From: a virus
Strand: one strand, 5' to 3'
Virus record (IMG/VR): IMGVR_UViG_3300025530_000004
Coordinates: 1-27,303 of that record
Length of the DNA stretch: 27,303 nucleotides
Of the stretch, positions 1-27,303 are shown piece by piece. The notes below the pieces were generated by a model. It saw only the letters and a program-made list of their open reading frames with translations. It ran no database searches and was not told the DNA's origin. Position numbers and translations under genes: made by a program. Every line of letters begins with the position of its first letter. Position 1 is the stretch's first letter.

Positions 1-127
1 CAAGTCATCAAGGACGGCTTGAACACTTTTGAAAACCTTCAGGCTAACGACTCTATCCTCTCCATCGACGGGGTATATGTCTCTTTCCCAACCGACACCG
101 ACGACGCTCTGGGACATATATCAGATG
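1..127. repeat. Terminal overlap, identical to 27177-27303 (circular-contig closure; unit genome 27,176 bp)
   Basis: Compared base by base: caagtcatcaaggacggcttgaac...catatatcagatg is present at both ends. The length of 127 equals a common assembler k-mer. Confidence 0.9.
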
Positions 128-552
128 TGAGTTACACCGCCAGCCAGTCGGGAATCACTATCAACATCACTGCCGAACTCGAAGCTGATCTGGTGGTTAA
201 CATCTCTGTCGAGGGGAGAACTGTTGGTAAGACTACGGCTTCGGTTAAAAGCACTGTCAAATCTCGCGACCCTAAAGTGGCTAATGTCTTGCATATCGAG
301 AATCCTTTCATCCAAGTCGAGTCTACGGCGCAACAATATGCCGATGCTGTCGCTGACTATTTGTACAACATGGAACGACAAGTTGAGGTTACTGGACTCT
401 TTTCTCCAGTTTTAACTGTAGGTCAGTACATCACTGTCAGCACAGACGAGTCTCTTTTCAACGGGACTTATCTCATAACCGGGGTCAACCTCGTACACAG
501 TCCCGATGGGTATTATAACACTTTGACTATGATCAAGCTGAGGGGGTTATAA
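1..552 (+). CDS. Tail-associated / baseplate-hub-like protein, 3' part of the gene starting at 26355
   Basis: Same frame as 26355-27303 across the overlap. Stop TAA at 550-552. Confidence 0.6.
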   Translation, partial: QVIKDGLNTFENLQANDSILSIDGVYVSFPTDTDDALGHISDVSYTASQSGITINITAELEADLVVNISVEGRTVGKTTASVKSTVKSRDPKVANVLHIENPFIQVESTAQQYADAVADYLYNMERQVEVTGLFSPVLTVGQYITVSTDESLFNGTYLITGVNLVHSPDGYYNTLTMIKLRGL

Positions 553-554
553 AA

Positions 555-1268
555 GTGGCAGACCAAACAGTTCGCTTCGAGTCTACTTCTTTTGTACCTC
601 CTTTTGATGACTCTCGTTGGGTTTTCGTTGATGCCACAGTTACAGGGGGTATTCTTACCATCCTTCCGGGCGGGGTTGCAAGTATTGAGTTAGAAGAGGA
701 AGTCAATAAGGACTTCGCCTACATGCGGGTTTATAATGTTTTTTCGGGTGATGATTTATCCGAGGAAAATAACTATCGCAACAAGCCTACTGTTGTTTTC
801 AAGGAGTTGTATAAGGATAGTCTCAACGCTCCAATCCACATGATTTATCGTGCCATCGGGTTTAATACTTCCGTTCTTCACTCTCCGGGGATATATCGAG
901 ATGAAACTATTTTTAGGACTTTCAATCGTCCTATGCGTAAAATGATAGTGGAGATCAGAAATGAAACCGAAGAAAATCTTAATATACACGGATTTTTCGT
1001 TTTTAGTTCTATAGACGTGGCAGTATCGCAGGTTAATCAAGCTATCGCCAACATCACCGCAGGTCAACTTGTTGAGACTGTTCGCTTCCGTTGGGATAGC
1101 GGGGGTAATTATCTCGAGGGTTTTGACATCAAAATTCCTTCGGAGGATGCGTTCCTTACTCATACTTTTCAGTACTTTTCTGGTCGTCTCACTAATATCA
1201 ACACCAATTACGCTGGTTCTATAACTGTCCTCAACGAGTTCGCGGGTGGTTCTGAGGAAGAGGATTAA
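555..1268 (+). CDS. Hypothetical distal-tail/baseplate protein (237 aa)
   Basis: GTG 555 follows GAGGGGG (539-545). It abuts the previous stop and lies in the tail-tip module. No motif recognised. Confidence 0.7.
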   Translation: MADQTVRFESTSFVPPFDDSRWVFVDATVTGGILTILPGGVASIELEEEVNKDFAYMRVYNVFSGDDLSEENNYRNKPTVVFKELYKDSLNAPIHMIYRAIGFNTSVLHSPGIYRDETIFRTFNRPMRKMIVEIRNETEENLNIHGFFVFSSIDVAVSQVNQAIANITAGQLVETVRFRWDSGGNYLEGFDIKIPSEDAFLTHTFQYFSGRLTNINTNYAGSITVLNEFAGGSEEED

Positions 1269-1279
1269 GGAGGGGTAGT

Positions 1280-1402
1280 ATGCCAGCTAATATCAACAAT
1301 CAAACCTACAGTCAACAGCAAGCGATGCTCAGCTTCATCGCTGGTTTTATCGTTGGAAAATCAGCACAAACTCAACTCACCATCAAGAAGACTAAGAGCT
1401 AG
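1280..1402 (+). CDS. Small ORF (40 aa, MPANINNQTYSQQQAMLSFIAGFIVGKSAQTQLTIKKTKS), below the ORF-track cutoff
   Basis: ATG 1280 lies 6 nt after AAGGAGGGG (1267-1275). It fills the gap between two tail genes exactly, and its stop TAG 1400-1402 overlaps the RBS of the next gene. It has a short hydrophobic core. Confidence 0.45.
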   Translation: MPANINNQTYSQQQAMLSFIAGFIVGKSAQTQLTIKKTKS

Positions 1403-1413
1403 GAGGGATAAAT

Positions 1414-3294
1414 GTGGCAGACAGGACTTTGGTCGAGTTCCCTGACCTTTTTCTTGCGGGCTACCTTTTATCTCGCTTCTTGGGGTGGCAACAGGAGCCG
1501 GGAGGGGTCATTTCTTCCTCACCTCCTTTTGGTTTCGTTTGGGGTGTTAAAGCTGAGACAGGTAATGGGGGTGGCGTTCGCGGTGAGAACGGGAAACCAA
1601 TAGCCGAGGACGCTTTGGGGTATTTGGGGGAATCTGCGATATTTGGGAAGGGAGGTAGCGAATCTGCCGGGGGTTGGGGTTTCTTTAACGGTTCTTTTGG
1701 TTACGGCGGTAGTGTCTACACTGTTCAACCTTCCTGTGGCGGCGGAGGCGGTTGGTTTGGCGGGGGTTCCTCCTTCATGGGGGCAGGAGGAGGTGGCGGC
1801 TCCGGTTATGTCCTTACAGCCGACTCCTATCGCCCGGAGGGATATGAACCTCCTTCAGAGTTCGAAGCCCTGAGTTGGGCGTTAATGCCGGGGGTCAATT
1901 TCCGCAACGGTTTCTGTCTTATCACTGATCTGGCAACTTCGAACTTCTGGGTATTTGACTATACTGGGGAAGTTCAAAAGTTTGTAGTCCCCGAGGACGG
2001 GGTATATCGCATTGATTGTTTTGGAGCAGAGGGAGGGGGTAGTTACCCTAACTTTGAGGATATCAAGTCACAGTACTCTGGGGGTATGGGTGGTTACGCT
2101 GGTGGTGAGTTCTACTTTGAAAAGGACACTGAACTTTTCATTTATGTTGGACAGTTTGGGAATCTGAATCAAATGATCGATGCTTGGAACGGAGGGGGTC
2201 ACGGATCTGGCGGTTGTTACGGTGGCGGTGGTGCAACTGACGTACGCTGGTCGGGGGTCGAAGGAGCCGTTCTCTGGAATCAGAATCTCTATGACCGTTT
2301 TATCGTAGCAGGTGGTGGCGGGGGTCAACATCGTGATGTAAGTATTCCACTCCCGCCTACTTCTGGAACGACTCCACCACGTCCTCCCGGACCTCCGGGT
2401 GATGACGACTCAGGAGATTATGGTTACGGGTCTTACAAAGTTCGTTATCTCTTGGGGTATAACTCTCTTATCCACGTAGATTTCGTTTATCAAGCGGGAC
2501 TAAGTCCTTTTGACGGTGAGGTGCTAACTTTACATCTTTACGCGGATGATGAGCTTGTTGCAACTAAGTATGTTCCTTTGAAGAACGATTTGAACTCTGA
2601 ACGAGTCACTTTTGAGGCGTCTGACTTTATTCTTCCGGGTAGCTCACCACGTCTTTACGATCTTCGAGTCCAGTTTATTCCTCCTGATGACACGCCGTTT
2701 ATTATCGTTCCGAACACCATAAAGATCACCATCGAACAGCGTTTCGGACCGAACGATATTATACCTCCGGGTTCGGAAGAAGAACAGGGTCAGATCGCGT
2801 ATAATTTTTATCTTAGTCTGAAGGAACGTCTCACTTTTCGCGATAAGGTAAGAATCATTTTTGATGACGAGGGGGGAGACATCACTAAAACTTATGATGA
2901 TCTTTTTGTGCTTACTGATAGCACTACACATAAATTTTTTGACTTAGTGATACTGTCTCTGAAGGACAAGCTTAGGTTCGATGATAAGGCTAAAGTTTCT
3001 TTGCTTACTCACTTCAAGGTAACGGATGGGGACAAACTCGAGTTTCAGGACAGCGGAATCATTTATTTCGAGGGTGATGATCCACCCGATCCTTACTTCG
3101 ACAAGTCTTTTTTAGAACAACTTGGTCTTTCTGATAAGGTGGTTTTAGATTTAAGAGAACTAGGAACACGTGGCTTTTTCGAACTTTTCAATATCTCTGA
3201 TAAGGCGGTTTATGAAGCCTTTCCTTTCTTGCAGTTTTATGTAGAGGACAATCTGGCTTTTAAGGATAAGTTCACTTTCATACTTGAGGGGTAA
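1414..3294 (+). CDS. Glycine-rich tail fibre-like protein (626 aa)
   Basis: GTG 1414 follows AGGAGGG (1401-1407). There are two Gly-rich modules (GGGGGWFGGGSSFMGAGGGGGSGYVLT; VYRIDCFGAEGGGS...GGYAGGEFYF...YVGQFGN...WNGGGHGSGGCYGGGGATDVRW...IVAGGGGG) that resemble the glycine-rich domain seen in phage fibre proteins. A Pro-rich linker follows, then a C-terminal region with repeated h-x-h-x-DK-h-x-h motifs. Confidence 0.8.
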   Translation: MADRTLVEFPDLFLAGYLLSRFLGWQQEPGGVISSSPPFGFVWGVKAETGNGGGVRGENGKPIAEDALGYLGESAIFGKGGSESAGGWGFFNGSFGYGGSVYTVQPSCGGGGGWFGGGSSFMGAGGGGGSGYVLTADSYRPEGYEPPSEFEALSWALMPGVNFRNGFCLITDLATSNFWVFDYTGEVQKFVVPEDGVYRIDCFGAEGGGSYPNFEDIKSQYSGGMGGYAGGEFYFEKDTELFIYVGQFGNLNQMIDAWNGGGHGSGGCYGGGGATDVRWSGVEGAVLWNQNLYDRFIVAGGGGGQHRDVSIPLPPTSGTTPPRPPGPPGDDDSGDYGYGSYKVRYLLGYNSLIHVDFVYQAGLSPFDGEVLTLHLYADDELVATKYVPLKNDLNSERVTFEASDFILPGSSPRLYDLRVQFIPPDDTPFIIVPNTIKITIEQRFGPNDIIPPGSEEEQGQIAYNFYLSLKERLTFRDKVRIIFDDEGGDITKTYDDLFVLTDSTTHKFFDLVILSLKDKLRFDDKAKVSLLTHFKVTDGDKLEFQDSGIIYFEGDDPPDPYFDKSFLEQLGLSDKVVLDLRELGTRGFFELFNISDKAVYEAFPFLQFYVEDNLAFKDKFTFILEG

Positions 3295-3308
3295 AGGAGG
3301 AGTATCCA

Positions 3309-4895: not shown

Positions 4896-5000
4896 GAATA
4901 ATTTTTCAGAGAAGGCGTTACTTTTCAGACTGCAAATCAGAGGTAAAGTCCTTATATAGTGAAGGCGGTCACAGTCGTAGCCTTCCATCATCCATTGTCG

Positions 5001-5032: not shown

Positions 5033-5047
5033 GAGGAGGTATCAACC

Positions 5048-6024: not shown

Positions 6025-6038
6025 AGGGGGTAATCCAC

Positions 6039-7031
6039 GTGGCTACGGTCATCTTTCCTACCTCTCAAGGCATTGATCTCGCCGGACGTGTTACTCCTGC
6101 CCTCATCCAAGAGCTGAAGGATCGCGGTTGGACAGGCGGCGTCTTGCGCTATTTAGGGCGAAGTACCCCTACCGAAGCCGCACGTCAAAGCCTTCCTCCT
6201 GACGAACTGAAACGTCTTGAAGCGGCTGGGCTTACTGCGGGTTGGAAGCACCTCACGGAATCTGAAGTTCGGCTTCTCTCCAAAGCCCAGATCCCTATTG
6301 GTTCGATCTATCAGCGCGGGACTGGTGACGTTTTTGAAGGGGAGAAAGCCGCTCGGGAGTACGCCCTTGATGCGCTTGCCCGCGCCAAATTCTTCGGTCA
6401 ACCTGAAGGTTCCGCGATCTATTTCACCTGTGACTCCGACATCAACGCTTATGCCCAAGCCCGCAAAATCTCCCTTCGAGATGCTTGCAACGTTGTTTCG
6501 GAGTTTCTGAAGGTGGTTCATTCTGTTTTTGCGGGTCGGTATAAAGTCGGTCTTTACGCGCAGTACGATGTCATCGAAACTTTGCGTCACCACAAGCACA
6601 TCGAGTGTTTCTTCCAGACTCGCTCTTGGTCGAAACGTAAAATCTCTACCGCCGCAAACATCTACCAGCACTCGCACGATGTAAAGCTCGCTGGTTCGAC
6701 TGTTGATCTGTGCGACTTTTACGGTGACGAAGGCTTCTGGCTCCCACCTGTTGGGGGTAATCAATCCACACCGCAAGGGGGTAATCCGGCTATGGAAGAA
6801 AAAATTAAACAACTTGAACAGCAGGTCGCTTCTTTGAAAGAGCAAGTCTCCCGTCTCCAAGCACAGCTCTCTCCGAAGGAACCTCCTTCTTGGGCGGAAG
6901 AGGCGCTTTCTTGGGCGAAGGAGGAAGCTCAGGTTCTTCACGACGAAAAGGGCGACGAGACCTTCCATCGTCTCATCACTGTCCTCCATCGTCTCCACGA
7001 GAAGGGGTATATCTCACCTCGTTTTTACTGA
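6039..7031 (+). CDS. Endolysin: N-terminal glycoside-hydrolase-like domain (Rv2525c/DUF1906-type, GH25-related) plus a C-terminal coiled-coil/WA-repeat region
   Basis: GTG 6039 follows GGGGGTAAT. The motif pattern GSAIYFTCDSD, YKVGLYAQY, FQTRSWS, STVDLCDF matches my memory of the DUF1906 lysin domain. The C-terminus carries MEEKIKQLEQQVASLKEQVSRLQAQL and SWAEEALSWAKEE. Confidence 0.75.
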   Translation: MATVIFPTSQGIDLAGRVTPALIQELKDRGWTGGVLRYLGRSTPTEAARQSLPPDELKRLEAAGLTAGWKHLTESEVRLLSKAQIPIGSIYQRGTGDVFEGEKAAREYALDALARAKFFGQPEGSAIYFTCDSDINAYAQARKISLRDACNVVSEFLKVVHSVFAGRYKVGLYAQYDVIETLRHHKHIECFFQTRSWSKRKISTAANIYQHSHDVKLAGSTVDLCDFYGDEGFWLPPVGGNQSTPQGGNPAMEEKIKQLEQQVASLKEQVSRLQAQLSPKEPPSWAEEALSWAKEEAQVLHDEKGDETFHRLITVLHRLHEKGYISPRFY

Positions 7032-7520: not shown

Positions 7521-7925
7521 ATGACTCGTAAAGAGAAACTCATTGAGGAGAGTATCAAGCAAATCCAAGAGTTCTTCACCACGAATGGCTACCAAATCAT
7601 CGAGTCTTTCCCCTACGGCGATAACCACTATGGGGGTGTCAACCACGTTTTGGTTATCCAGCATCGGAAGCCCATCCTTTACTCCGATCCTGATCCGAAC
7701 TCTGTCCAACGCTCTTTTTACGGGAACTGTAGTCGCTGGTATCGTTTCTCCTTTGATTACTTCAACCGACTTCGCAAGGTTGCGGTCTATGAAATCGTCG
7801 ACGGGACTTACGGTTGTTGTTTAGAGGAACTTGAGTTTCCCCTTCCAGCACACCAACGGTTTCTGGACAAGACTTTGTTCCGTCGTCTTTTCTCCCGTAA
7901 ACGTTCCACCCCTGTTAGGGGGTAA
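7521..7925 (+). CDS. Hypothetical protein (134 aa)
   Basis: ATG 7521 follows ATGGAGGTGGG. No family recognised. Confidence 0.65.
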   Translation: MTRKEKLIEESIKQIQEFFTTNGYQIIESFPYGDNHYGGVNHVLVIQHRKPILYSDPDPNSVQRSFYGNCSRWYRFSFDYFNRLRKVAVYEIVDGTYGCCLEELEFPLPAHQRFLDKTLFRRLFSRKRSTPVRG

Positions 7926-8758: not shown

Positions 8759-8956
8759 ATGATAAACGGTAGCCATATCGAACCTCCGGTCAAGCGTCTC
8801 AGCCGTAAGGATACCGCTAAGCTGTTGGGGGTATCCACCCAAACGATCTACAACTGGGAGCAAGCGGGCAAAATCACCCCGAGGCGAACACCGGGCGGCA
8901 AGCCCTTCTACACCGAGGAGGACGTAAGAAAGATCTACGCTACGCTGTTTGGTTAA
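8759..8956 (+). CDS. MerR/excisionase-type helix-turn-helix DNA-binding protein (65 aa)
   Basis: ATG 8759 follows GGGAGGTGG. LSRKDTAKLLGVSTQTIYNWEQAGKITPRRTPGGKPFYTEEDV matches the HTH_17/excisionase-family pattern. Confidence 0.75.
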   Translation: MINGSHIEPPVKRLSRKDTAKLLGVSTQTIYNWEQAGKITPRRTPGGKPFYTEEDVRKIYATLFG

Positions 8957-9001: not shown

Positions 9002-9553
9002 ATGATGACTGTGACCAACCAAGCCTTCGAATCCATTTCCCCGACGCTGTACGACATGGCTCTCGAGTATGGGTTTACCTCGGAGGAAGCTGAAGCTCTC
9101 CTGCAAGAAGAGATCGCCAAGGCTACCGCTAAGCACACGGTGCAACAGGTCAAGGAAATCCAACCGCCGTCCCTGACGCTGTACGACATGGCTCTCGAGT
9201 ACGGTATGTCGGACGAGGAAGCAGAAGCGCTCATGCAAGACGCTATTCGTTCCTTCGAGCGTCAAATCACCCAAATCTTCGAGGGGGTAGTCTACCCGGT
9301 CATCCCGCAACCCCCGGTCGTCAAGAAGTCCAAGCCCAAGACCAAGCGCAAAACCTCGACCCTCGAGTTTATTGAGGAGAAGTTGAACTCCCTCGACGTC
9401 AGCGACCCGGTCAGAATCTATCTCGAGGAAGTTGCAACTCATGTTGGCGAAGCCGGGATCGAACTCGAGAGCTTCAAATTCCTTGCAAAAGAGTTGGAGG
9501 CTATAGAAAAACACGAGCACTCGAGGGGTGGTGCTAATGTCCTCGCTGGTTAA
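9002..9553 (+). CDS. Hypothetical early protein (183 aa) with an internal tandem duplication and a C-terminal DPVRIYLEEV motif
   Basis: ATG 9002 lies 9 nt after AAGGAGG. Two 44-aa-spaced modules (TLYDMALEYGFTSEEAEALLQEEI / TLYDMALEYGMSDEEAEALMQDAI) share 27 identical nucleotides (9043-9069 = 9175-9201). Confidence 0.7.
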   Translation: MMTVTNQAFESISPTLYDMALEYGFTSEEAEALLQEEIAKATAKHTVQQVKEIQPPSLTLYDMALEYGMSDEEAEALMQDAIRSFERQITQIFEGVVYPVIPQPPVVKKSKPKTKRKTSTLEFIEEKLNSLDVSDPVRIYLEEVATHVGEAGIELESFKFLAKELEAIEKHEHSRGGANVLAG

Positions 9554-10565
9554 GGAACTAGATTCAGGTAGGCTGACTATCGTTCAGCCTACCTCTAAAC
9601 CGGATATTGTTCTTAAAGCCGCACGTAAAGAATTGGAGTTTGTCAAGGCTTCTCTGAACGGTAACCCTATCTCCGTTACCTTAACTCGAGTAATTTCGAG
9701 ACAGCGACGGACTAAGATAACTAACATCGATTCTGCATCAAGTGCTATCACTGAAGGTCGTCGCTTCTACTACCAAGGGGAGTTATACGACATCGCTATC
9801 GAGGACTTGAACGCTGTCAGGAGTGCGGGTTTCGCCCATCTCATTCCTAGAATCAAGAGAGAGGATAGCCGAAAGTATCGAGTCTTTGTCCGTGAGGTTG
9901 CTGGTTCGGGGGTATTTATCTCCCATCTTGAACGTTGCGCTATCGGCGCAAGGCGCTTTTGGGCAAAGCACATCGTCGGGAAGGAAGCCGCCATCGCTTT
10001 TCTTCAAGCTTTCGGTTCTTCTGAACCATCCGAGGTCATCAAAGTCGTCGAGTCGTTGGAAAAAGATCATTTTCCAGCTCTCGTACCACAAGTTACTCCC
10101 CAGCCGAATCTGGAAAAAGATCATTTTCCTGCTTCTTCGTCCGCTGTGACTTCGCGCGATAACGAGCTTCTTCTCGAAATTAGGGATATGCTGTACAGGC
10201 TCCTTCCTTTAATCGAGCAACTCGATGGGGTTGACCTTAAGGTAAGTGAGTTATTGGAGCGTCCGATCTGTTCAGGGGGTAAGCAGTTTTACCGGGACAA
10301 CTTCGTCCCTCCCGGCGGGTTCATCGATCATCTTTTTAACGAGTTGGATAAGCTCATCGCTTCCGGCTCCAGTGCCGAATCCGCCTATCGCGCCTTCTGC
10401 CGTCAAGCTGAAACCGAAGGGACGCTCACCCACCAGCTTTATCAAGAGTATGTGAAGAACCGGGATAAAAAGGATATCACTCCAGCGATGATCAAGTACT
10501 GGTATAAAAAGTTGTTTTACCGCGACGATGATGGAAAGGTAAGGAGGAGGGACGGACGTGAGTAA
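9537..10565 (+). CDS. Hypothetical early protein (342 aa); candidate replication initiator carrying internal iteron-like repeats
   Basis: ATG 9537 lies 8 nt after GAGGGG (the track start GTG 9528 overlaps that SD). The gene overlaps the previous one. It has N- and C-terminal domains joined by a low-complexity linker encoded by the repeats at 10057-10129. Confidence 0.65.
   Translation: MSSLVKELDSGRLTIVQPTSKPDIVLKAARKELEFVKASLNGNPISVTLTRVISRQRRTKITNIDSASSAITEGRRFYYQGELYDIAIEDLNAVRSAGFAHLIPRIKREDSRKYRVFVREVAGSGVFISHLERCAIGARRFWAKHIVGKEAAIAFLQAFGSSEPSEVIKVVESLEKDHFPALVPQVTPQPNLEKDHFPASSSAVTSRDNELLLEIRDMLYRLLPLIEQLDGVDLKVSELLERPICSGGKQFYRDNFVPPGGFIDHLFNELDKLIASGSSAESAYRAFCRQAETEGTLTHQLYQEYVKNRDKKDITPAMIKYWYKKLFYRDDDGKVRRRDGRE
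10057..10129. repeat. Two perfect 19-bp direct repeats TGGAAAAAGATCATTTTCC (10057-10075, 10111-10129), each a near-palindrome centred on GATC
   Basis: Read directly. 8 of 9 base pairs are symmetric in GGAAAAAGATCATTTTCC. The period is 54 bp. Each repeat encodes LEKDHFPA. Confidence 0.85.
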
Positions 10566-11622
10566 GAAAGCGTATTTGAAGAAAGTTGCTCTCGAGTTGT
10601 TTGGGAACACGGCTTCGGAGGATAACTTCTTTAACCCGACGTCCAAAGTTGCGGTAGCGGAGCCTGAACAGGCTCCCTCCCTTGCGGGGGTAGCGACTTT
10701 GACTGTATCGCAACCGCCTATCGCGCCTGTCGCGCCACAGGTTGCTCCGCAAGTGGTTCCGGTCAAAAGGGAACTCACGCAGTCGGAAATCATCGAAGCT
10801 CGAATCCAACGCTTCCGTCAACTGCAAAACCTGTCGGAGAAGAACACCTTCATCCCCATCCCTGTAAAGGATATCACGCCGCCCGATTTCCTTCAAGAAA
10901 TTTCTCGACTTAAGAAATCTGAAGCGAGCTTGGAGTCGATCTCGAACTTCTTGAAAGGGTTTTTTCCAGATACGGGCGACGAGAATCTCGACTATCGTCG
11001 GGCTGTGCTTACCCAGATCTGTCTGCGTGTCAGACCTGTTCGGGGTATTCGAAGAACCTATCTCCTTTCCTACACTGATGATCTGGGACATATCGTTGTT
11101 GACCCTTACGGCTTTGCTACTCGGACTTCGAATAACTTGACGTTCCGGGGTAATATCTACAGCTTCCCAAAGCATATCACTTTGTCCCTCGAAGGGGAAA
11201 AGCTCTACGCGATTAACGAGAAAACCGAGGAGAAGGTAGTTATCCTCGACCCGTCTCAAGAACTTGATCTTTCTAAGGTCGATCACTACGGTGCGGACTC
11301 GTACACCAACGCCACAGGCGGTAAGCGCGTTATCAACGGTGTCGAGCGAGAGTTCTGGGGGTATCCGATGCTCCGTATTCGCGGAGAGCGCAAGTACAGC
11401 CTTCGTATCCACACGATCATCGCCGCTCTCTACGTTGGGTTGTATCCGGCTCTTGTCGCTACCGGGTCGAGCAGACTGTGCGATATCCATCACATAAATC
11501 CTTTCAGTTTGTCTTTCGATAACTCTCCTTCCAACATCGCCGTGCTTTGGAAGAAGGAACACGAAGCCCTCCACGGGGGTAAAGGTTGGCTCTACCGTGA
11601 GCGGAGAAAGGAGGCTCGTTAA
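10558..11622 (+). CDS. HNH endonuclease with a long N-terminal extension (354 aa)
   Basis: GTG 10558 follows AGGAGGAGGG. The C-terminus, GYPMLRIRGERKYSLRIHTIIAALYVG...CDIHHINPFSLSFDNSPSNIAVLWKKEHEALHGG, fits the HNH (H-N-H) motif layout. Confidence 0.75.
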   Translation: MSKKAYLKKVALELFGNTASEDNFFNPTSKVAVAEPEQAPSLAGVATLTVSQPPIAPVAPQVAPQVVPVKRELTQSEIIEARIQRFRQLQNLSEKNTFIPIPVKDITPPDFLQEISRLKKSEASLESISNFLKGFFPDTGDENLDYRRAVLTQICLRVRPVRGIRRTYLLSYTDDLGHIVVDPYGFATRTSNNLTFRGNIYSFPKHITLSLEGEKLYAINEKTEEKVVILDPSQELDLSKVDHYGADSYTNATGGKRVINGVEREFWGYPMLRIRGERKYSLRIHTIIAALYVGLYPALVATGSSRLCDIHHINPFSLSFDNSPSNIAVLWKKEHEALHGGKGWLYRERRKEAR

Positions 11623-16334: not shown

Positions 16335-17472
16335 GCATAAATCTCGTTTGCGGTCTTTTGGCGTTCCATCTGAAGAGGACTTTCAGACTATCAAAGAATT
16401 TTTGAAACATCCAGTCGCCAAAGAAGACTTGTTTGTATATTCGGTAAAGCTGTGCGATAACCTTTTGGATCGAGGAGGCGAGTTCTTCTCGATCCCGGCT
16501 TTGCATCAGCTTGCTGATCTCTTTGTCGGTATCGGGGGTATCTTCAGTCACAACTGGCGGGGTTCGGAACATCATTCCCGCATCTACAAAACGGAAGTCC
16601 TCTCCGACGACTCTATCGAAAAAACGCCAGTAGGGGAACCGTATACCTATGTTGTAGCCTACGTCTACACGCTTAACACCGAAGAAAATAAACCTTTCCT
16701 CGACAAGCTGAAGGCGGGCATCTACCAAGAGGTTTCGATCGGCTTCGAAAGAGCAAAGACTTCCAAAGTTCCCTACGGTGAAAGAAAGGCGGTGCGCATC
16801 GACGAGATCGCAGATGTTTACGAGTGGTCGTTTGTGGCTGTCCCTGCCCAGCCCTTTGCGGGGGTAGTTAAGTCCTATAAACAGTCTAAGGAGGAAGGAA
16901 GCATGAGTTGGGAAACGGCTCTTGCCAAGCTGAAAAGCGCTCAAGGTATCGAGGCTTCCACCGTGCAGGTGATCGAAAATCATCTGTTGCGGTTTAAGTC
17001 GCTCGAGCGCGAGTTGGAAGACACGAAATCCAAGGTCAAGTCTCTCGAGGAAGAACTGGTGGCGAGCAAGCTCGATCACGCCATCGATGCGATCCTGACC
17101 GAACTCGAACCCATCGACGAAGTGGCGGCTGAACTGGCGTCTGGTTTGATCCGCGATAAGCTGGCGATCGGTGAAGAAGAGGAAGAGGTCATCGGGGTCG
17201 ATGAAGCTCGAGATGAGCTGAAGACCAAGTACCATTTCCTGTTCAAGAACTGCAAGTCGGACGCTCACTCCGAGGCGTATGAGTTCGAAGAGGAGGAAAG
17301 GGAGTCGGAGGAGTTCAAGTCCAAGACCAAATCCGCCCCTCAACGGCGTGTTGGTATCGACTTCTCGAAGTTCTCCAACCGCTCGTTGAAGGAGTACCGG
17401 GGTTCGTCGGATACGGATCTGAAGTCCTTCTTCGCTAAGAAGCTCAACGAAGTAAAAGGGGGTAAAAACTAA
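16303..17472 (+). CDS. Prohead serine protease (S78/HK97-type) fused to a coiled-coil acidic scaffold-like C-terminal half (389 aa)
   Basis: FSHNWRG...GIYQEVSIGFE...EWSFVAVPAQPFAGV fits the S78 motif order. The C-terminal half is heptad/acidic (LERELEDTKSKVKSLEEEL...). TTG 16303 lies 7 nt after GGGGGT and overlaps the portal 3' end. Confidence 0.7.
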   Translation: MERKTKHLRPKHKSRLRSFGVPSEEDFQTIKEFLKHPVAKEDLFVYSVKLCDNLLDRGGEFFSIPALHQLADLFVGIGGIFSHNWRGSEHHSRIYKTEVLSDDSIEKTPVGEPYTYVVAYVYTLNTEENKPFLDKLKAGIYQEVSIGFERAKTSKVPYGERKAVRIDEIADVYEWSFVAVPAQPFAGVVKSYKQSKEEGSMSWETALAKLKSAQGIEASTVQVIENHLLRFKSLERELEDTKSKVKSLEEELVASKLDHAIDAILTELEPIDEVAAELASGLIRDKLAIGEEEEEVIGVDEARDELKTKYHFLFKNCKSDAHSEAYEFEEEERESEEFKSKTKSAPQRRVGIDFSKFSNRSLKEYRGSSDTDLKSFFAKKLNEVKGGKN

Positions 17473-18869
17473 TGGCGACGACTACGGCTGTTATCGAAGC
17501 GGCTTTGGCGTACCAGAACCAAGCCATCATGCAACCTATCGTCGATTCGAAGGTTGCCGCACTCTTGCACGACCCGTCCCGCTTCCAGTTCGCCAAGGCT
17601 GGGGCGAAAACCTTCGTCCGTGAGGTGACTGGCGGTAATGCCGTCGATTACGATCCGGCGGATGGTTTCCACGGTGCGTCCTCCGGGGGTAGCGTCGAGT
17701 GGGTCGAGTTCAACGCTCCTTTTGATCGGGCTATTGTCGATTCCATCGACACGATCAAAGACCTCGACTCGTTCCTCGCTGGAATGACGCCATCGTCCAA
17801 GTTGCTCAACAATCAAACGTGGCGTAACTTTGCGGCTGAGCTGGACGCGGTATCCATCGCCAGCATCACCAATACCACCAACAGCGCAAACATCTACACG
17901 GACAGCACGCCGGGTTTCAGTCTTGAACCTGATCAGTTCATGTCCACGCTGATCAACATCCAGCAAAAAATCTTCAGTGGCGAGGGGGTAGCGAACGGAC
18001 AAGGCTACTCCGGCGACGTTCTTGCTTTCGTTGACTCGGAGGTTTTTGGAGCATACATGACGTACATCTCCAGTAAGTACGCTTTGGCGAACCCGACTAT
18101 CCTCCATCCGACCAAGCGAACGATTCCGATGACGCTGGTTCCGGGACATGAGAAGCTCACGATCAACGTCGACTTCTATGAGTTCCAAACGGGTTACGGA
18201 ACGATCCTCCTGAACGTCGTACCTTCGTCTCGTATGTACCGGGAGGTTGAACTCCTTGACGGTCGGGGTAATTCGGGTGGTTTCGTCCCGGCAGAAGGTG
18301 CGGAGCACGTTCGTCTTCTGGTGGTTCCGAAGGAAGGTGCGGTTCTCTCCATTCGTCACTTTGTCGCTGGTCTTTCGCTTCCGATGGTTTTGGGGGTATA
18401 TGAGGAGATTTTCAAGCGTCCTGAAACGCTTGACTTCCTGTTCGACTACTACGGAGGTCGCGTCGACTTTACGGATATGGGCATCACGCAACTGGCTGAT
18501 GCGATCCAGTTCAAGAGCCGTATCAAATACGGTGTGGCGCACTTCAAGACTTATCGCAAGCTGACCTACGTGGTTCTCGGTGAAACCTTCACCCCAACCT
18601 CTCTCGTTGTCACTCCCGCTACGGTTACGGTTGAAGAAGGGGCGGAAGAAGAACTCACCTTCGAGATCACCGACGGCGATACGACGGTCGAGGTTCCGGC
18701 GGACTCCAAGTATATCAGTGTACAGGTTTTGGATACCAACACGGCGACCTACGCTGACGGCAAGGTTACCGGGGTAGCTCAAGGAACCACGCAACTGATT
18801 GTGGTGTACACGGGTTCGTCCACTCCGCTCATCACCACGGTCGACGTCACGGTCACAACACCTGCTTAA
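17472..18869 (+). CDS. Major capsid protein with a C-terminal Ig-like (Big_2-type) domain (465 aa)
   Basis: The ATG overlaps the protease stop (TAATG). Position after the protease/scaffold supports the call. The C-terminal 90 aa (VTPATVTVEEGAEEELTF...KVTGVAQGTTQLIVVY...VTVTTPA) look like a bacterial Ig-like fold. Confidence 0.8.
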   Translation: MATTTAVIEAALAYQNQAIMQPIVDSKVAALLHDPSRFQFAKAGAKTFVREVTGGNAVDYDPADGFHGASSGGSVEWVEFNAPFDRAIVDSIDTIKDLDSFLAGMTPSSKLLNNQTWRNFAAELDAVSIASITNTTNSANIYTDSTPGFSLEPDQFMSTLINIQQKIFSGEGVANGQGYSGDVLAFVDSEVFGAYMTYISSKYALANPTILHPTKRTIPMTLVPGHEKLTINVDFYEFQTGYGTILLNVVPSSRMYREVELLDGRGNSGGFVPAEGAEHVRLLVVPKEGAVLSIRHFVAGLSLPMVLGVYEEIFKRPETLDFLFDYYGGRVDFTDMGITQLADAIQFKSRIKYGVAHFKTYRKLTYVVLGETFTPTSLVVTPATVTVEEGAEEELTFEITDGDTTVEVPADSKYISVQVLDTNTATYADGKVTGVAQGTTQLIVVYTGSSTPLITTVDVTVTTPA

Positions 18870-19152: not shown

Positions 19153-19779
19153 ATGCACGATCTGACGGACTATCCTAAAATCCAAGGAGAATACTCCTAC
19201 GTCACGGTCGAGGAAGCCGACCAGATCGTGGCGAGGTATTTTCGTTCTGACGACCCTGTGCGTATCAAGTGGTTGGGTAAACCATCCACTGATCCTGAAG
19301 TTCCTTCGATACCCCCGCTCCCGGTTGAGGATAAAGAAATCCTTCTTCTGCGGAGCTTGGAGTATATCGACTCCCTGCGCTTTCGAGGTCGCAAAGCCGA
19401 CATCGGGCAGATGCTTCAGTTTCCTCGTTTTGTTAAAGGTATCGGCTTTTCGGTCATTTTCCTCCCTTTTATACCGCAAGCCTACGATCCTAACGTCCTT
19501 TCGGACGACTTTGGCTCTCCCGACGGTGGTTTGAAAGTGGCTAAGAAAGCGCAGGCTGTCAATGCGGCATTCGGTGCGATGACTGACGCTAGTCAGGTAG
19601 CTTTGAACATCTACGCCCGCGAGGTGACAGGGGTATCCTCCCTTCGCTCGGGGTCTTTGGCGGAAACTTACACGTCACCTTCGGCAAGGGCGCGGGCGAT
19701 TCTTGCAGGGAACTTCGCTCCCGATATTGTTGATAATATCCTGAAGGACTGGCTCAGCTCGTCCAAATTCGCTTTGTAG
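19153..19779 (+). CDS. Putative head-tail connector / head completion protein (208 aa)
   Basis: ATG 19153 follows AGGAGGGGTAACC. The call is positional. Confidence 0.5.
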   Translation: MHDLTDYPKIQGEYSYVTVEEADQIVARYFRSDDPVRIKWLGKPSTDPEVPSIPPLPVEDKEILLLRSLEYIDSLRFRGRKADIGQMLQFPRFVKGIGFSVIFLPFIPQAYDPNVLSDDFGSPDGGLKVAKKAQAVNAAFGAMTDASQVALNIYAREVTGVSSLRSGSLAETYTSPSARARAILAGNFAPDIVDNILKDWLSSSKFAL

Positions 19780-21796: not shown

Positions 21797-21826
21797 CTTC
21801 TCCGAGCATACACTCCCCGAAAGCTG

Positions 21827-23008: not shown

Positions 23009-23021
23009 GGAGGTGTAATTC

Positions 23022-25523
23022 GTGGCTGAACCTTTTACTTCGCAACCGGACGTCGATATCACTGCCCGCTCTAGTTCTTACGACAAGAACATCCAGAAAA
23101 TCATCGACCTCAACCGTCGCCTTCGCGGTGAGTTGGAAGGGGTAAAGTCTGATCTCGAGTCTATGAACGAGGAGTTCGACAAGGCGTCGCAAAGCATCGA
23201 CCGTATGATCGCTTCCTTGCGTCGTCTTCCCGGTATCAAGGGTCGTCGTGCTTCTGGAGGGGGTATCTCTTTCGACTCAGACTCGACGTCCGAGTCAAAC
23301 CCGCGCCGACAACGCGCCTTGGCGCAAGCTAAGGAGCTTTCTCGCATCGAGGATATTTACTACCGCCAAAGGCAGGAAAGAATTCGGACTATAAAAAACT
23401 CCACCCTACAAGTATACGGGCTTGGAAAGTCTGGAGCGTCTTTTTCCAACCTTATTAATCTTGGTTTTGGGACGCTTGAGAAGTCGCTCCCGAGTAACGT
23501 CATACCTTTCCCTTCTCGCGGTGCACACGCCATGCAGGGGTTGGGGAATGCGGGTGCGGTGGCTTCTAGAGGTATCTCGGGTGTCGGTGCTTCTTCCGCT
23601 ATCGCGGCTACGGGGGTAATAGCTCTCGCAACTGGACTTGCGTCGCTGGTTGCGCTGATGCTCAAGCTCGGTTCGGACGGAGCTAAGGCGCAACTCACCA
23701 TAGCCAACTCGCAAAAGGTATTGGGAACTTCTTTTAAGGACTCCTATAACTTTGCGAAGAAGCTGAACCACGAACTAGGCATCGCGGTCAGCACGTCCAT
23801 GAAGCTCGTTTCTTCGGTTTCGCAACTCATGAAATCCTCGGGGATGTCCACCGATACGGCATCCTATATCGGTCGGACTGCGACAATTTACGCTTCGAAC
23901 ATCGCCGCGCAAACTGGCGCAAATATCGAAGCGGTTACTGACGCCATCGCCCGCGCTATCGCGACCGGGGAGGATACACTGGGACAGTTCGGTATCCACA
24001 TCCATGATAACGCGGTCAAGGCTTGGATGCTTCAAACTAGGGGTATCGACGCCTTTAACGTTGCGATTTCCGAGTCGAACATGCAGAAGTACCGCTTCTT
24101 GTTCCTAACTGAGATGATGAACCGTGCGGGGTATAATAACTACCAGACGAACAACTCTCTCGCCGCCAGCCTGACTCGGTTAAAGAACACTTGGGCTTCT
24201 CTCGTCGAGAACGCCCAAGCCATTTTCATCCCGGTCTTTCAAGCGGTCGTTACCATCCTCGAGAAGCTTAGTAGTGCTGTCCTCAAGGTCGTCAACGGCT
24301 TCCGCGAGCTTATGGGGTATGATCCCATCTTACCGAAAGTCGATGGGGTAAACCAAGCGGCTATCGACTCGGTGCAAGCGATGTATAGTCAGTACCGCAA
24401 ACTCGGAGACGAACTCGACCGGGTCAAGGGAAACCTGCACTCGTTTGACGAACTTGAAAACATCTCTGGCTTTGAACCCGCTTTGGGCGAGTTGTCCGAT
24501 CTTGACATGCAAGAAGTGCAAAAAGCCCTTGGCGAGCAAGGTCGTCTGTTAGATAAAACGAAGGAGACGGCAAACGTGTATAGCGAGAAACTCGCTAGTG
24601 GCGCACGTCGCGCCGTTGACACGTTGATCAACCGCTTGCCGCAAAGCTGGCAAGAACCAGCTCGCGCCTTCTTTAATATCAGCGATAAGACTTGGGAAGA
24701 AATGACTAAGCTTGAGAAACTTCTTAACAACCCTTGGAAAGCGACTATCGAGCTGGTAAAGGCTGGCGATGCTACCGTTTGGGACTTCATCAAGGCGGCG
24801 GTGGTGGGTTGGTTCAAAACGAGTCCGATCTATCAAACAATCCAAGCGGCTCTCGAAGGTGACCCTCAGGGGGTAATGATGGGGCTTATCAAACTGATAC
24901 TCGGTATGGTTCCTGCAACTAAACCCATCGTACTCGCGTGGCGGGGGTATGAAATGGTCAGGGACTTCTTCACTCAGCTCAAGGAGCAAGGAGTCGAGGT
25001 TTCCTTCCCCGGTATGCTTGCCAAGTTGAAGGACATCTTCTCTGAAGCCGCAAAGTTCTTAGGGGAGCGTATCGCTAGTATAGTCGATGCGGTTCGTAAT
25101 CGCGTTTCGAATGCTTGGGACACAGTAAAGACTACTTGGGGCAACGCAAAGAACTTCGTCAGCAACATCCCAACCATCACATCCACGTCCTTCTCTCTGT
25201 TCCCAAATCTTCCTAGGTATGATACTGGGGGTATCCATCAAAAGGCGCACGTGGCGGTCGTCCATCCGAACGAACTTACACTTCCGCTTGACAGCGCCGC
25301 AGGTCGCCCGGCGTACCAGAAAATCGCTAACGAACTTCTGTCCATGTCCCGTCTCGACAAAATGTTCGGGGGTAACGGACAGACGGTCATCAACTACGAC
25401 CTTGGAAGCAACAACACGCTCATCGCTGACGGAGCTTCCTTCAACCGACTTGTTGAACGCGTCCACGAGAAAATGGTTCAGAACCAACGTTTTACCGGAC
25501 CGTTCAACTTCAACGCTCGTTAA
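23022..25523 (+). CDS. Tape measure protein (833 aa)
   Basis: GTG 23022 lies 8 nt after AAGGAGG. It is the largest gene and follows the chaperones. It has a helical/coiled-coil composition and a hydrophobic central segment (GVGASSAIAATGVIALATGLASLVALMLKLG). Confidence 0.9.
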   Translation: MAEPFTSQPDVDITARSSSYDKNIQKIIDLNRRLRGELEGVKSDLESMNEEFDKASQSIDRMIASLRRLPGIKGRRASGGGISFDSDSTSESNPRRQRALAQAKELSRIEDIYYRQRQERIRTIKNSTLQVYGLGKSGASFSNLINLGFGTLEKSLPSNVIPFPSRGAHAMQGLGNAGAVASRGISGVGASSAIAATGVIALATGLASLVALMLKLGSDGAKAQLTIANSQKVLGTSFKDSYNFAKKLNHELGIAVSTSMKLVSSVSQLMKSSGMSTDTASYIGRTATIYASNIAAQTGANIEAVTDAIARAIATGEDTLGQFGIHIHDNAVKAWMLQTRGIDAFNVAISESNMQKYRFLFLTEMMNRAGYNNYQTNNSLAASLTRLKNTWASLVENAQAIFIPVFQAVVTILEKLSSAVLKVVNGFRELMGYDPILPKVDGVNQAAIDSVQAMYSQYRKLGDELDRVKGNLHSFDELENISGFEPALGELSDLDMQEVQKALGEQGRLLDKTKETANVYSEKLASGARRAVDTLINRLPQSWQEPARAFFNISDKTWEEMTKLEKLLNNPWKATIELVKAGDATVWDFIKAAVVGWFKTSPIYQTIQAALEGDPQGVMMGLIKLILGMVPATKPIVLAWRGYEMVRDFFTQLKEQGVEVSFPGMLAKLKDIFSEAAKFLGERIASIVDAVRNRVSNAWDTVKTTWGNAKNFVSNIPTITSTSFSLFPNLPRYDTGGIHQKAHVAVVHPNELTLPLDSAAGRPAYQKIANELLSMSRLDKMFGGNGQTVINYDLGSNNTLIADGASFNRLVERVHEKMVQNQRFTGPFNFNAR

Positions 25524-25535
25524 GGAGGGGTAAAC

Positions 25536-26333
25536 ATGTCCGAATCGTTGCTTACTACTATCAACGACATGTCGCACATCGACCCTGAAGTTCTTGAGTC
25601 CGACTATGAGAATCGTTCGCACGGGGGCTACAAGATCGACGATCTTGTCGTCCCTTCCCCTCTTTTGGGGACTCAGGACTTCTCTGGGAACATTATGACT
25701 GTGCAAGCCTATCGTACTATCGACAGCACGTTGGTGCAAAAAGTTCGTGCCAACATCTTTAAGACCGTCTGGGAGTATCCGCTTTTGTCCGATCAGTATC
25801 TTCGTGCCATTTGTAAACTTATTGGTCAAAAACGCGTGGCTGGTGATAACGCCTACGACGTTACTTTCCAATCTCCTTTCGCTTGGGGTAAGCCCAACCT
25901 CATCAAGGTTCGAATGTATTTGGGAAGCGATCTCATGTACACGGGTAAAGTGGTTAAACACGGTTGGATTACCCACTGGGAGTGTCGTTTCTCTTGGATA
26001 CAAATCGGCGGCGGTTTGAACTTTGAGGGTATCAACATGGACACTGGTCTTCCTCTCGGTGAACCGGAAGCGAAAGTAAAGAATAGTCTTGACTCTGGTG
26101 GCGGTGGTGAGTCACTCCAGCTCAAGTCCGACCTTAAAGTGCTTGCTGGGGGTAAAAAGCCGGGTGTCGAAGTCCTTAAGGTTCTTCCCTCCGAAGATCG
26201 CCTTATCCCTAACGAGTACCTTGTGCGCATCAACGGTATCCCGGAACTGCAAGACGAGGAGGTCATCCTCTCCTTCTTCAACGACCAGCACAACCAACCC
26301 GCTATTCTCATCAAGGAGTCTAAGGGCGCATAA
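25536..26333 (+). CDS. Distal tail protein (Dit-like, 265 aa)
   Basis: ATG 25536 follows AAGGAGGGGTAAAC. It lies immediately after the tape measure gene. Confidence 0.6.
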   Translation: MSESLLTTINDMSHIDPEVLESDYENRSHGGYKIDDLVVPSPLLGTQDFSGNIMTVQAYRTIDSTLVQKVRANIFKTVWEYPLLSDQYLRAICKLIGQKRVAGDNAYDVTFQSPFAWGKPNLIKVRMYLGSDLMYTGKVVKHGWITHWECRFSWIQIGGGLNFEGINMDTGLPLGEPEAKVKNSLDSGGGGESLQLKSDLKVLAGGKKPGVEVLKVLPSEDRLIPNEYLVRINGIPELQDEEVILSFFNDQHNQPAILIKESKGA

Positions 26334-26354
26334 TTCTGAAAGGAGGTTCTACCT

Positions 26355-27303
26355 ATGGCTAGCATACCTCTCGCAGGGAACGAGCTTTATCGGGTGCTTC
26401 TCACCTTTGATAATGAAGAGGAGTACGAGTCTTTTTCCAGACCTACACCATCCACTCCCAGACGTTTTATCGAGTACATCAACCTAAAGGAGCAAAATTC
26501 GATCACGGCTGGCAACCCTGTAGGTATCGTCTCCCCGAACTCGCTCAGCTTGCGCCTTTTCGACGAGGATAATCTGCTGAACCCGGATAACACCTCGAGT
26601 CCTTACTATGGTTATATGCGGACTGGGGTAAAGGTTGAGCTTTTTTACTCTGAGGACAACGGGGAAAGCTGGAATCCACTTGGTATCTTCTATACTGAGT
26701 CTTGGGGTATCAGTCTGTCCGAGTCGGGGTTTACTCCAGCTGAGCTTAGTTGTCAGGACAATCTCGCCTACATCGGCAACATGGAAATCCCTCCCCTCGA
26801 CGCCTACGCGGGGTTGAACGTTGCGACTTTGCTCGAGCGTGTCTTTGAGGGTTTGGGTTTGACTCCTGAAGACTATTTCATTGACCCTGCCCTTCCGACT
26901 GTGAACCTATTGTTTGCCGTCACTCCGGGGAGTAAGGTTAACGAATTGTTAAACTCTGCGGCTCAGAGTCTTTTGGCGTGGGTTAACACAAATCGGGAAG
27001 GGGTAATCACCATCGCTCCGGCTTTCCCCGAGGTTACGATTTTCGGGGAACTCGAACTTCGTCAGTCGGAAACAATCAGCTTTCGGCATAACGAACTCGC
27101 GGTCTACAACCGGGTTTATTTGCGATATAACAAGGCGGACAACCGACCATCTGACATCATTTTGTCGCTCCAGAACCAAGTCATCAAGGACGGCTTGAAC
27201 ACTTTTGAAAACCTTCAGGCTAACGACTCTATCCTCTCCATCGACGGGGTATATGTCTCTTTCCCAACCGACACCGACGACGCTCTGGGACATATATCAG
27301 ATG
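26355..27303 (+). CDS. Tail-associated / baseplate-hub-like protein, 5' part (gene continues across the linearisation point to 552; 457 aa in total)
   Basis: ATG 26355 lies 8 nt after AGGAGG (26341-26346). The frame stays open to the window end and is in phase with ORF 19-552 (pos 27177 = pos 1 = codon start, ...LQNQVIKDGLNTF...). It sits immediately after the Dit-like gene, the usual Tal position. Confidence 0.6.
   Translation, partial: MASIPLAGNELYRVLLTFDNEEEYESFSRPTPSTPRRFIEYINLKEQNSITAGNPVGIVSPNSLSLRLFDEDNLLNPDNTSSPYYGYMRTGVKVELFYSEDNGESWNPLGIFYTESWGISLSESGFTPAELSCQDNLAYIGNMEIPPLDAYAGLNVATLLERVFEGLGLTPEDYFIDPALPTVNLLFAVTPGSKVNELLNSAAQSLLAWVNTNREGVITIAPAFPEVTIFGELELRQSETISFRHNELAVYNRVYLRYNKADNRPSDIILSLQNQVIKDGLNTFENLQANDSILSIDGVYVSFPTDTDDALGHISD
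27177..27303. repeat. Second copy of the 127-bp terminal overlap
   Basis: Identical to 1-127. Confidence 0.9.

Follow-up and report, generated by a model that had tools for sequence, protein, structure and literature searches.

Introduction

Phages without recombination (Rec) modules accumulate Chi, with 23 copies in LLS, 50 in P1 and 32 in MD8, and in these genomes Chi is the most frequent oligomer and is found almost only on the top strand, as exemplified by 20 of 23 copies in LLS and 32 of 32 in MD8 (PMC12315714). This Chi-saturated class, comprising the coliphage LLS, P1 and the Pseudomonas phage MD8, is described by Zheng et al. (2025, PMC12315714, where Bobay et al. 2013 is cited). Terminase genes are by convention drawn there at the left, such that entry of the nuclease is from the right-hand end, which packaging leaves open, and headful phages are furthermore stated almost always to need a recombination module. 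Chi sequences are described as short and species-specific (PMC4614115). Short polar words are likewise found as the strand-specific sites of the N.phiGamma family of nicking endonucleases, namely CG^GT, YG^GTY, CSG^GT, HSSG^GT and GG^GT (Xu and Gupta 2013, PMC3592412). Here we describe the word GGGGTA, which is dispersed over one strand of a viral DNA of 27,303 nucleotides (IMG/VR record IMGVR_UViG_3300025530_000004, positions 1 to 27,303; this whole stretch is called the window in the following), and compare it with these and other systems.

The likeness of GGGGTA to the Chi sequences of LLS, P1 and MD8 extends to several features. In each case a short asymmetric word tops its length class, is enriched 10-30 fold over random, is confined almost entirely to the upper strand (terminase at the left, transcribed rightward) and is not explained by codon usage, while near-variants are frequent, which suggests turnover, and no Rec or anti-RecBCD genes have been recognised. 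With the N.phiGamma-type enzymes the window has in common an HNH gene near the terminase, and the G^GT core of their short asymmetric sites is contained within GGGGTA.

The GGGGTA word in the window

An exact count places 90 copies of GGGGTA on the + strand, starting at positions 70, 646, 1102, 1272, 1617, 1999, 2036, 2081, 2454, 3288, 3639, 3843, 4119, 5339, 5534, 5929, 6027, 6754, 6778, 7004, 7395, 7919, 8073, 8375, 8828, 9284, 9909, 10276, 10687, 11042, 11147, 11358, 11576, 12176, 12376, 12646, 12924, 13226, 13385, 13717, 13751, 13835, 14242, 14360, 14414, 15172, 15358, 15639, 16258, 16291, 16535, 16861, 17459, 17686, 17985, 18265, 18393, 18771, 18877, 18913, 18953, 19143, 19630, 19786, 20275, 20637, 20811, 20883, 21368, 21692, 22627, 22870, 23139, 23260, 23613, 24040, 24128, 24314, 24345, 24870, 24944, 25228, 25369, 25527, 25885, 26149, 26625, 26704, 27000 and 27246. 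The opposite orientation is seen just twice (as TACCCC on the + strand and therefore GGGGTA on the - strand, at 6164-6169 and 19310-19315). Since the first 127 bases of the window are identical to the last 127 (27177-27303), which represent the overlap of a circular assembly, the copy at 27246 is the same as that at 70, and the unit genome of 27,176 bp holds 89 unique copies. GGGGTA is the most strand-skewed hexamer of the window and also has the top score relative to base composition, from which 6.4 copies are expected. An earlier reading of the bare sequence, made by eye (the sequence-only reading), had listed 89 copies, 88 of which are exact and one of which, 25379, should be 25369; both of its complement copies are recovered, and its estimate of 6-7 expected copies per strand, and hence of a large excess, agrees with the recount. 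The mean spacing is 305 bp, the word accounts for about 2% of all bases, and its density is equal across the early, structural and tail regions.

The copies conform to the logo (A/C/T)(G)GGGGTA(T/A/G). The base following the word is T in 42 copies, A in 31, G in 17 and C in none, and a fifth 5' G is present in 51 copies and a sixth in none. Both patterns had been noted before, the former as never C and the latter as about 52 copies with a fifth G, and both stand as counts, but neither is a property of the motif as such, since the missing C follows from the absence of GGTAC throughout the genome and the missing sixth G from a general avoidance of GGGGGG (see below). The related hexamers GGGGTC, GGGGTT and GGGGTG, previously put at about 30 together, occur 10, 17 and 6 times. 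Copies fall into all codon phases (30, 36 and 16 in phases 0, 1 and 2), and 7 are intergenic. Two lie over stop codons, at 3288-3293 in the gene 1414-3294 and at 7919 in the gene 7521-7925, where the phase-2 translation is EG or RG followed by the stop. Ten copies are embedded in ribosome-binding sites (RBSs), one of them at 1272-1277 in the context aaggaGGGGTAgtATG ahead of a start codon at 1280, and the others at 6027, 8073, 13385, 16291, 17459, 18913, 19143, 19786 and 25527. The three phases, the stop-codon overlaps and the ten RBS copies had all been recognised in the sequence-only reading, as had the co-orientation of the copies with transcription, all genes being encoded on the + strand.

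The excess was evaluated against three nulls, all of which keep the protein sequence: permutation of synonymous codons within genes, global resampling of codons, and a third-position shuffle that keeps dinucleotides. The genes contain 82 copies, compared with 13.4±3.3 under synonymous codon permutation (z=21), 12.0±3.2 under global codon-usage resampling and 26.8±3.9 under the dinucleotide-preserving shuffle (z=14, maximum 40 in 1000), and the observed number is above all 3000 shuffles, the maxima of which are 24-40. It had been proposed beforehand that synonymous shuffles preserving codon-pair usage might reproduce about 90 copies, but under the three nulls the excess stood, and together with the distribution over phases they rule out a peptide motif or a codon pair as its cause. 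TACCCC, with 2 copies against 3-4.2 expected under the shuffles, is not depleted, so that the asymmetry reflects an excess on one strand and not a deficit on the other. GGGGTC, GGGGTG and GGGGTT, as well as GGAGG, are all at shuffle expectation in the window genes.

The copies are furthermore more evenly spaced than random placement would have them, the coefficient of variation (CV) of the spacing being 0.705 against 0.985±0.10 (P=0.00035), and a CV of 0.67 is found in the relative L070. The proteins of the window and L070 are about 50% identical and their aligned nucleotides 56% identical, and 16 of the 56 aligned copies (29%) are found at the identical nucleotide in L070, compared with 6.1% for all hexamers, an approximately 5-fold difference; by chance 0.15 shared sites are expected. 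Most copies are nevertheless not common to the two genomes, and site conservation above that of the surroundings combined with turnover at a kept density is what one would expect of a signal that depends on frequency and orientation. We conclude that the GGGGTA excess is selected at the nucleotide level, on one strand and in a density-dependent manner, and that the original observation holds and is more marked than in its first description.

Occurrence in related and unrelated phages

A terminase search identifies a family of metagenomic contigs of 22-31 kb, for which counts are given as forward:reverse. GGGGTA is found 66:1 times in L071, whose capsid protein is 98% identical to that of the window, 52:3 in L070 (GC content 41.5%), which stems from a gut metagenome of ant-eating mammals (SRR23924980), 61:2 and 56:2 in L072 and L073 (both 42%), 51:1 in 15 kb of L076 (34%) and 46:1 in L078 (39%). 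The excess is borne out by protein-preserving shuffles in each GGGGTA-bearing relative, and the motif is thus common to relatives spanning GC contents of 34-50%. The sister lineage L077 has AGGGGTT instead (58:0), with GGGGTA only at 1:2, and L074 and L075 carry YGGGTAG, GGGTAG occurring 20 times in the called genes of L074 against 2.4 expected (23:2 in the whole locus). The search for the word in related phages that had been called for in the sequence-only reading hence finds it conserved, or altered by one base, within the clade. The RBS copies carry the variant of their own lineage, for example GGAGGGGTT in L077, which suggests that G-rich RBSs are convenient places for the motif and not its purpose. 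Early genes are barely conserved even within this 27-kb clade.

No comparable word was found in L079-L081, the terminases of which are 39-44% identical. In the 21 kb of L079 (terminase 44% identical) TGCTG occurs 104:16 and GATGCTG 18:0, a bias that only partly survives codon shuffling (z about 5), and this phage may hold a different polar word.

When IMG/VR was scanned for clusters of three GGGGTA copies, tandem or peptide repeats made up most of the 120 matches listed, but one genuine unrelated case is L126, on a 128-kb contig encoding a family-A DNA polymerase. Its relatives comprise six contigs of 118-232 kb with GC contents of 35-39% and RBSs of Shine-Dalgarno (SD) type (L232-L247; IMG/VR 3300011936_000138, 7000000673_000020, 3300045988_154631, 3300008274_000007, 3300006291_000002 and 3300008141_000003), characterised by a family-A polymerase of 1212 residues, and Pfam matches are lacking for nearly all of their proteins. 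In 23.6-kb stretches of these large phages GGGGTA ranks first to third among the hexamers, with counts of 55:0, 57:0, 33:0, 58:1, 31:0 and 57:0. It is spread over all three phases and exceeds the shuffles (46 copies vs 14 or 24). Over about 41 kb of one of the contigs the count is about 100:2, all genes being co-oriented over at least 41 kb, and two contigs lean to (A)GGGTAT, with GGGTAT at 61:0 in L236.

Three other contigs stood out in the same database: L178 (1-13225, - strand, of a 70-kb contig), L209 and L163 (a 125-kb contig) contain GGGGTA at 6-7 per kb, with 97:0, 84:0 and 34:0 copies, always within GTNGGGGTA followed by TT or AC and across many consecutive open reading frames, with Val-Gly-Val-Leu-like translations. 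These were considered as instances of the same phenomenon and rejected, since all spacings are multiples of 6 and the pattern appears to be a pervasive hexanucleotide or dipeptide periodicity.

It follows that a polar word is conserved, in lineage-variable form, in at least two unrelated phage groups. The early proteins that are best conserved within the 27-kb clade are an HNH protein and an orphan protein of 344 residues (p354 and p344 in the window, see below), and hidden Markov models (HMMs) of these two families match nothing in the large-phage loci (41-60 kb examined). Given that the word recurs without a detectable early or replication protein in common, and that early genes are barely conserved in the clade, it is more parsimonious to assume a reader encoded by the host, and the differing words of sister phages would then mirror different hosts.

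Possible function as a Chi-like signal

The explanation that we favour, albeit tentatively, is that GGGGTA (GGGGTAD) may act as a polar Chi-like signal on one strand, with a host enzyme as its reader, most probably a helicase-nuclease of AddAB/RecBCD type. A Chi-like role had also been among the suggestions of the sequence-only reading, and it is the best supported of these in view of the restriction to one strand, the turnover at kept density, the occurrence in unrelated phages and the lack of any recombination module found. The word is 6-7 nt long, asymmetric and used in one orientation (89:2), as would be required of Chi sequences, which are 5-8 nt long. The motif strand is the strand that encodes the small and large terminase subunits (TerS and TerL), and this is the "active" upper strand in the paradigm of lambda, LLS and MD8, so that GGGGTA is, as in Chi-enriched phages, the top oligomer on the upper strand relative to the terminase, provided that packaging proceeds in the direction that we infer. 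The position of terS probably sets the start and direction of packaging. Neither a recombination module nor a nuclease inhibitor was recognised in the window with Pfam, PHROGs and NCBIfam.

The terminase is of PBSX/SPP1 type and packaging probably of the headful kind, for which such terminases are typical. A permuted headful genome would expose ends anywhere, and even spacing would hence be expected rather than the end-clustering of cos phages. The host is presumably a Gram-positive, SD-using gut bacterium, and distant relatives of the terminase come from Gram-positive hosts. The window word differs from those of LLS, P1 and MD8 in being a 6-mer (a 7-mer with flanks) and in its Gram-positive-like host, the enzyme of which would be of AddAB/RexAB type rather than RecBCD.

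If GGGGTA is such a signal, the nuclease would load at a free double-strand end, be it the first-injected end, the end opened by packaging or the tail of a rolling circle. It would then move leftward on the + strand, whose 3' end lies at the break, meet the motif from its 3' side within about 300 bp and switch from destruction to loading of RecA, and the RecA loading may both protect the genome and drive the recombination needed for circularisation and concatemers. Selection would keep dense, even, one-strand copies wherever coding allows, RBSs included, and the variants AGGGGTT, YGGGTAG and AGGGTAT would correspond to Chi in different hosts. Which enzyme reads the word, which way packaging proceeds and which bacterium is the host are deduced in this scheme rather than demonstrated.

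A number of points weigh against a Chi-like function. The density is about 6 times higher than in LLS and P1 (1 per 305 bp vs 1 per 1.2-1.9 kb), and the copies are even genome-wide and not clustered near one end as in LLS, P1 and MD8. In contrast to these phages GGGGTA furthermore varies between sister phages and is also present in phages of 118-232 kb with their own polymerase, and its link to a nuclease is one of analogy. Known AddAB Chi sequences are AGCGG, GCGCGTG and GAAGCGG, and to our knowledge no known Chi resembles GGGGTA. A Chi would be predicted to be over-represented in the chromosome of its host, with a skew to the leading strand. In a scan of genome contigs by lysin alignment only relatives of about 30% identity were found (Cohnella and Paenibacillus of the Paenibacillaceae, and metagenome-assembled genomes of Bacillota), with flanks devoid of motif skew. 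Since most early proteins are unannotated, a missing Rec module is but a weak negative. The motif-bearing large phages have replication proteins of their own and might not depend on recombination by the host. Different motifs are found in sister phages whose proteins are about 46-62% identical, and a Chi-like reading would thus require host switches to different Chi sequences. Finally, all genes are on the motif strand in every genome examined, no convincing opposite-strand gene being found in any motif-bearing genome, including a large-phage contig to about 41 kb, and a role in RNA or transcription is therefore inseparable from one at the level of DNA.

A possible target of the phage HNH protein

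An alternative is that GGGGTA is the target of a strand-specific HNH nickase encoded by the phage, namely p354, possibly together with p344, and that regular nicks serve priming of strand displacement, packaging or recombination, with enzyme specificity and word co-evolving. We find this unlikely, even though the gene organisation is suggestive. The p354 gene (10558-11622, + strand) encodes 354 residues with a C-terminal HNH (beta-beta-alpha-Me) motif DIHH..N..H (Pfam HNH_4, E=3.3e-4; PHROG HNH endonuclease, E=1.3e-4) and lies beside the packaging genes, 1.2 kb upstream of terS. The p344 gene (9531-10565, + strand) is directly upstream and overlaps its start. Upstream of terS, all members of the motif clade encode an HNH-type protein, be it a homologue or an analogue, namely p354 in the window, p355 in L070, p240 in L072, p396 in L074, p293 in L076, p301 in L077 and p314 in L078, while the motif-less L079 and L080 have a ParB-methyltransferase at that place and L081 has neither this nor a recognised HNH protein. 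Terminase-linked HNH nickases of Firmicutes phages have sites of 3-7 bp with a G^GT core, into which GGG^GTA fits, and lineage variants are an expected outcome of the co-evolution of enzyme and site.

The specificity does not, however, track the enzyme. The same GGGGTA goes with the HNH_4-like protein of the window and with the HNH_3 proteins of L076 and L078, the identity being about 30% over 77 residues, whereas the HNH proteins of L077 and L078 are 35% identical and yet go with different motifs. The large phages carry the motif although the HNH and p344 models have no match in the loci covered. Compared with the N.phiGamma-type enzymes the GGGGTA site is only putative, it is associated with very different HNH types and it also occurs in phages where no such HNH protein was found. 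In addition, an approximately 13-fold enrichment of self-nicking sites is not accounted for by any known benefit, and the known nick sites of N.phiGamma-type enzymes and T5 are not enriched in their own genomes, T5 having only a handful; T5-type nicks are confined to one strand. Characterisation of the known nickases is confined to in vitro work, and no biological role is known for them. Structure models lent no support either, since AlphaFold2 predictions were of low confidence, with a predicted local distance difference test (pLDDT) score of 42 for p344 (alignment of 3 sequences) and 36 for p354 (single sequence), and a PDB sequence search with the two proteins returned nothing useful. Of the earlier suggestion that the HNH protein acts on the word, the compatibility with a G^GT core thus stands, but the suggestion is weakened by the differing HNH types and by the large phages without a detected homologue.

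p344 has weak relatives in L070, L072, L074 and L077, and among 1.84 billion proteins an exhaustive profile search matched only 9, all weakly, without any informative Pfam domain. It contains the peptide LEKDHFPA as a direct internal repeat, about 20 residues apart, which is kept in its two homologues.

More generally, the word might belong to an undescribed but widespread strategy of Gram-positive gut phages, in which a lineage-variable heptamer with a GGGTA core recurs every ~300 bp on one strand and is read by a phage or host factor other than AddAB/RecBCD, for example a strand-specific nickase; this too we regard as a long shot.

A possible signal in the transcript

It is likewise rather doubtful that the motif acts in the transcript or in the non-template strand while the very long, unidirectional operons are transcribed, be it as the site of an RNA-binding or elongation factor (anti-termination, RNA stabilisation) or as an SD-like contact with the ribosome. 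The coding strand does hold every copy, and in each motif-bearing genome all genes point the same way as the motif. The word resembles the SD sequence in being G-rich and able to pair with the 3' end of 16S rRNA, ten copies double as RBSs, and sequence reasoning indicates that GGGGGU pairs with the anti-SD through one G.U wobble. The absence of GGTAC from the coding strand could also be an RNA-level effect. However, 79 of the copies are internal, and the words that pair best with the ribosome are not enriched, since GGAGG occurs 44 times inside the genes of the window against 46 expected and is even depleted within genes of the large phages (15 vs 33-40 and 6 vs 17-22). The 3' TA has no partner in the anti-SD and is irrelevant to pairing, which would predict G after GGGGT, yet GGGGTG is the rarest of the four hexamers. 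The 3' variants (TA, TT and TAG) can furthermore not be explained by the ribosome, because all of these phages use ordinary GGAGG-type RBSs, and we know of no RNA-binding protein with specificity for GGGGTA. The proposal in the sequence-only reading of an SD-like or ops-like signal accordingly finds no support in the GGAGG counts or in the base following GGGGT.

Other explanations

That GGGGTA signals lagging-strand priming, on the strand that rolling-circle replication displaces, with 5'-GGGGTA-3' giving pppACCCC and the A to T variant falling on a cryptic position, is improbable. One-strand copies spaced evenly about 300 nt apart would suit repeated priming on one template, and by simple reasoning the + strand would be the displaced one if replication is co-directional with transcription. 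The word is also reminiscent of the sites of T7 gp4, the T7 primase recognising 5'-GGGTC-3' with primer pppACCC and a cryptic 3' base, and the large phages encode a Toprim-type protein. No primase domain is recognisable in the 27-kb phages, however, the two phage groups have no detectable replication protein in common, and the variant YGGGTAG does not fit the idea of a cryptic base. The DnaG of the host recognises trinucleotides (CTA/TTA in Firmicutes), for which enrichment of a longer word is unnecessary.

T7 evades the Type III enzyme EcoP15I by having its CAGCAG sites in one orientation only, and the window is similar in that all copies of an asymmetric word are in one orientation with the genes all on one strand. 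Evasion predicts the loss of one orientation and not a 13-fold gain of the other, however, and this explanation was rejected for GGGGTA since the rare orientation is as frequent as expected whereas the common one exceeds expectation 3-6x. The KOPS of FtsK (GGGNAGGG) and the SRS of SpoIIIE (GAGAAGGG) are similarly G-rich, strand-polar, over-represented words read by a translocase, but they are 8-mers of bacterial chromosomes, oriented toward dif and present at about 1 per 10 kb, and we know of no KOPS/SRS-type role in a non-integrating phage. The architecture or translocase-type motif suggested in the sequence-only reading is a very broad proposal. A G-quadruplex was discarded because the copies are too far apart, overall GC skew because the skew of the window is about 0, and a link to tRNAs because the window contains no tRNA genes. 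An origin of the excess in composition, in codon-pair usage or in mutational bias is effectively refuted, for although Gly GGG/GGT and Val GTA are in use and the null rises from 13 to 27 once dinucleotides are kept, such an origin is contradicted by the comparison with the 3000 shuffles, the three phases, the missing GC skew, the unenriched neighbours GGGGTC, GGGGTG and GGGGTT, the regular spacing, the 5-fold site conservation, the persistence from 34% to 50% GC and the one-base switch in sister phages.

Genome organisation and database context

The window is a complete, small tailed-phage genome with a coding share of about 96% and strong, canonical RBSs (AGGAGG, GGAGGT). The gene beginning at 26355 runs on across the ends of the assembly into 128-552, with a product of 457 residues as in L071. 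On the basis of library matches, the genes, all on the + strand, comprise a glycine-rich tail fibre (1414-3294), a lysin of Rv2525c type (6039-7031), a MerR-type helix-turn-helix protein (8759-8956), a protease-scaffold (16303-17472), the major capsid protein (17472-18869) and a tape measure protein (23022-25523). The protein p183 (9002-9553, + strand) is maybe a phage transcription factor, as its N-terminus has weak similarity to ECF-type sigma factors (NCBIfam, E=0.0013, far below the cut-off). The probable terS (12805-13395, + strand) lies directly upstream of the TerL gene and is conserved in all relatives. TerL (13399-14643, + strand) is of Terminase_6N/Terminase_3, PBSX type and is transcribed on the motif strand, and its relatives carry the source name "PBSX family phage terminase large subunit". 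It is followed by a weakly matching, SPP1 Gp6-like portal gene (14658-16334, + strand), Pfam SPP1_portal being found on homologues. About 10 early proteins are without any annotation.

A megablast search of INPHARED with 25 kb gave no match, and tblastn searches of the same collection gave none for the portal and at best 31% identity for TerL; no cultured relative was found in this collection. IMG/VR scans with the major capsid protein, lysin and tail fibre returned nothing, and those with TerL only relatives of 24-42% identity without the motif, and there is thus no close relative in either collection. In the literature, a search for GGGGTA turned up nothing but primers.

Other word biases

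Several other words are avoided in the window. GGTAC is absent from the + strand against 19-25 expected in protein-preserving shuffles, while its complement GTACC is at expectation with 16 copies. GGTAC is likewise absent from L070, L071, L072 and L074, occurs once each in L077 and L078 and 7 times in L076, and is normal in the outgroup and the large phages (18-47). Elimination of one orientation with the other at expectation is what Type III restriction would bring about, and the pattern is consistent with escape from an orientation-dependent (Type III-like) restriction enzyme or from an mRNA-cleaving toxin. Only one GGGGGG is found where 14-18 are expected, in spite of the great abundance of GGGG and GGGGG. 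Palindromes are nearly eliminated, with GGCC at 1 (30-44 expected), CCWGG at 0 (25-46), GCWGC at 1 (20-30) and CCCGGG at 0, and GGWCC is low (GGTCC 0, GGACC 6). This loss of palindromes amounts to classical avoidance of restriction sites and could be of use in narrowing the choice of hosts.

Implications

The density and even spacing of GGGGTA mean that a non-coding signal has been written strongly through coding sequence, in all three frames. If it is nicking that the word serves, the genome would be nicked in the manner of T5 but at 20-fold higher density, with enzyme specificity and word usage co-evolving. If the reader is something other than AddAB/RecBCD the system would be new, and the switching of the motif between sister phages would provide a natural experiment for finding that reader. 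If, on the other hand, the word is a Chi sequence, phage genomes alone would reveal the recombination hotspot sequence of uncultured gut Bacillota, with the sister phages revealing its variants, and this would offer a handle both on AddAB specificity and on the assignment of metagenomic phages to hosts by way of their word usage. It would likewise show how tiny phages devoid of recombination and anti-nuclease genes survive end-processing nucleases and limit the acquisition of CRISPR spacers.

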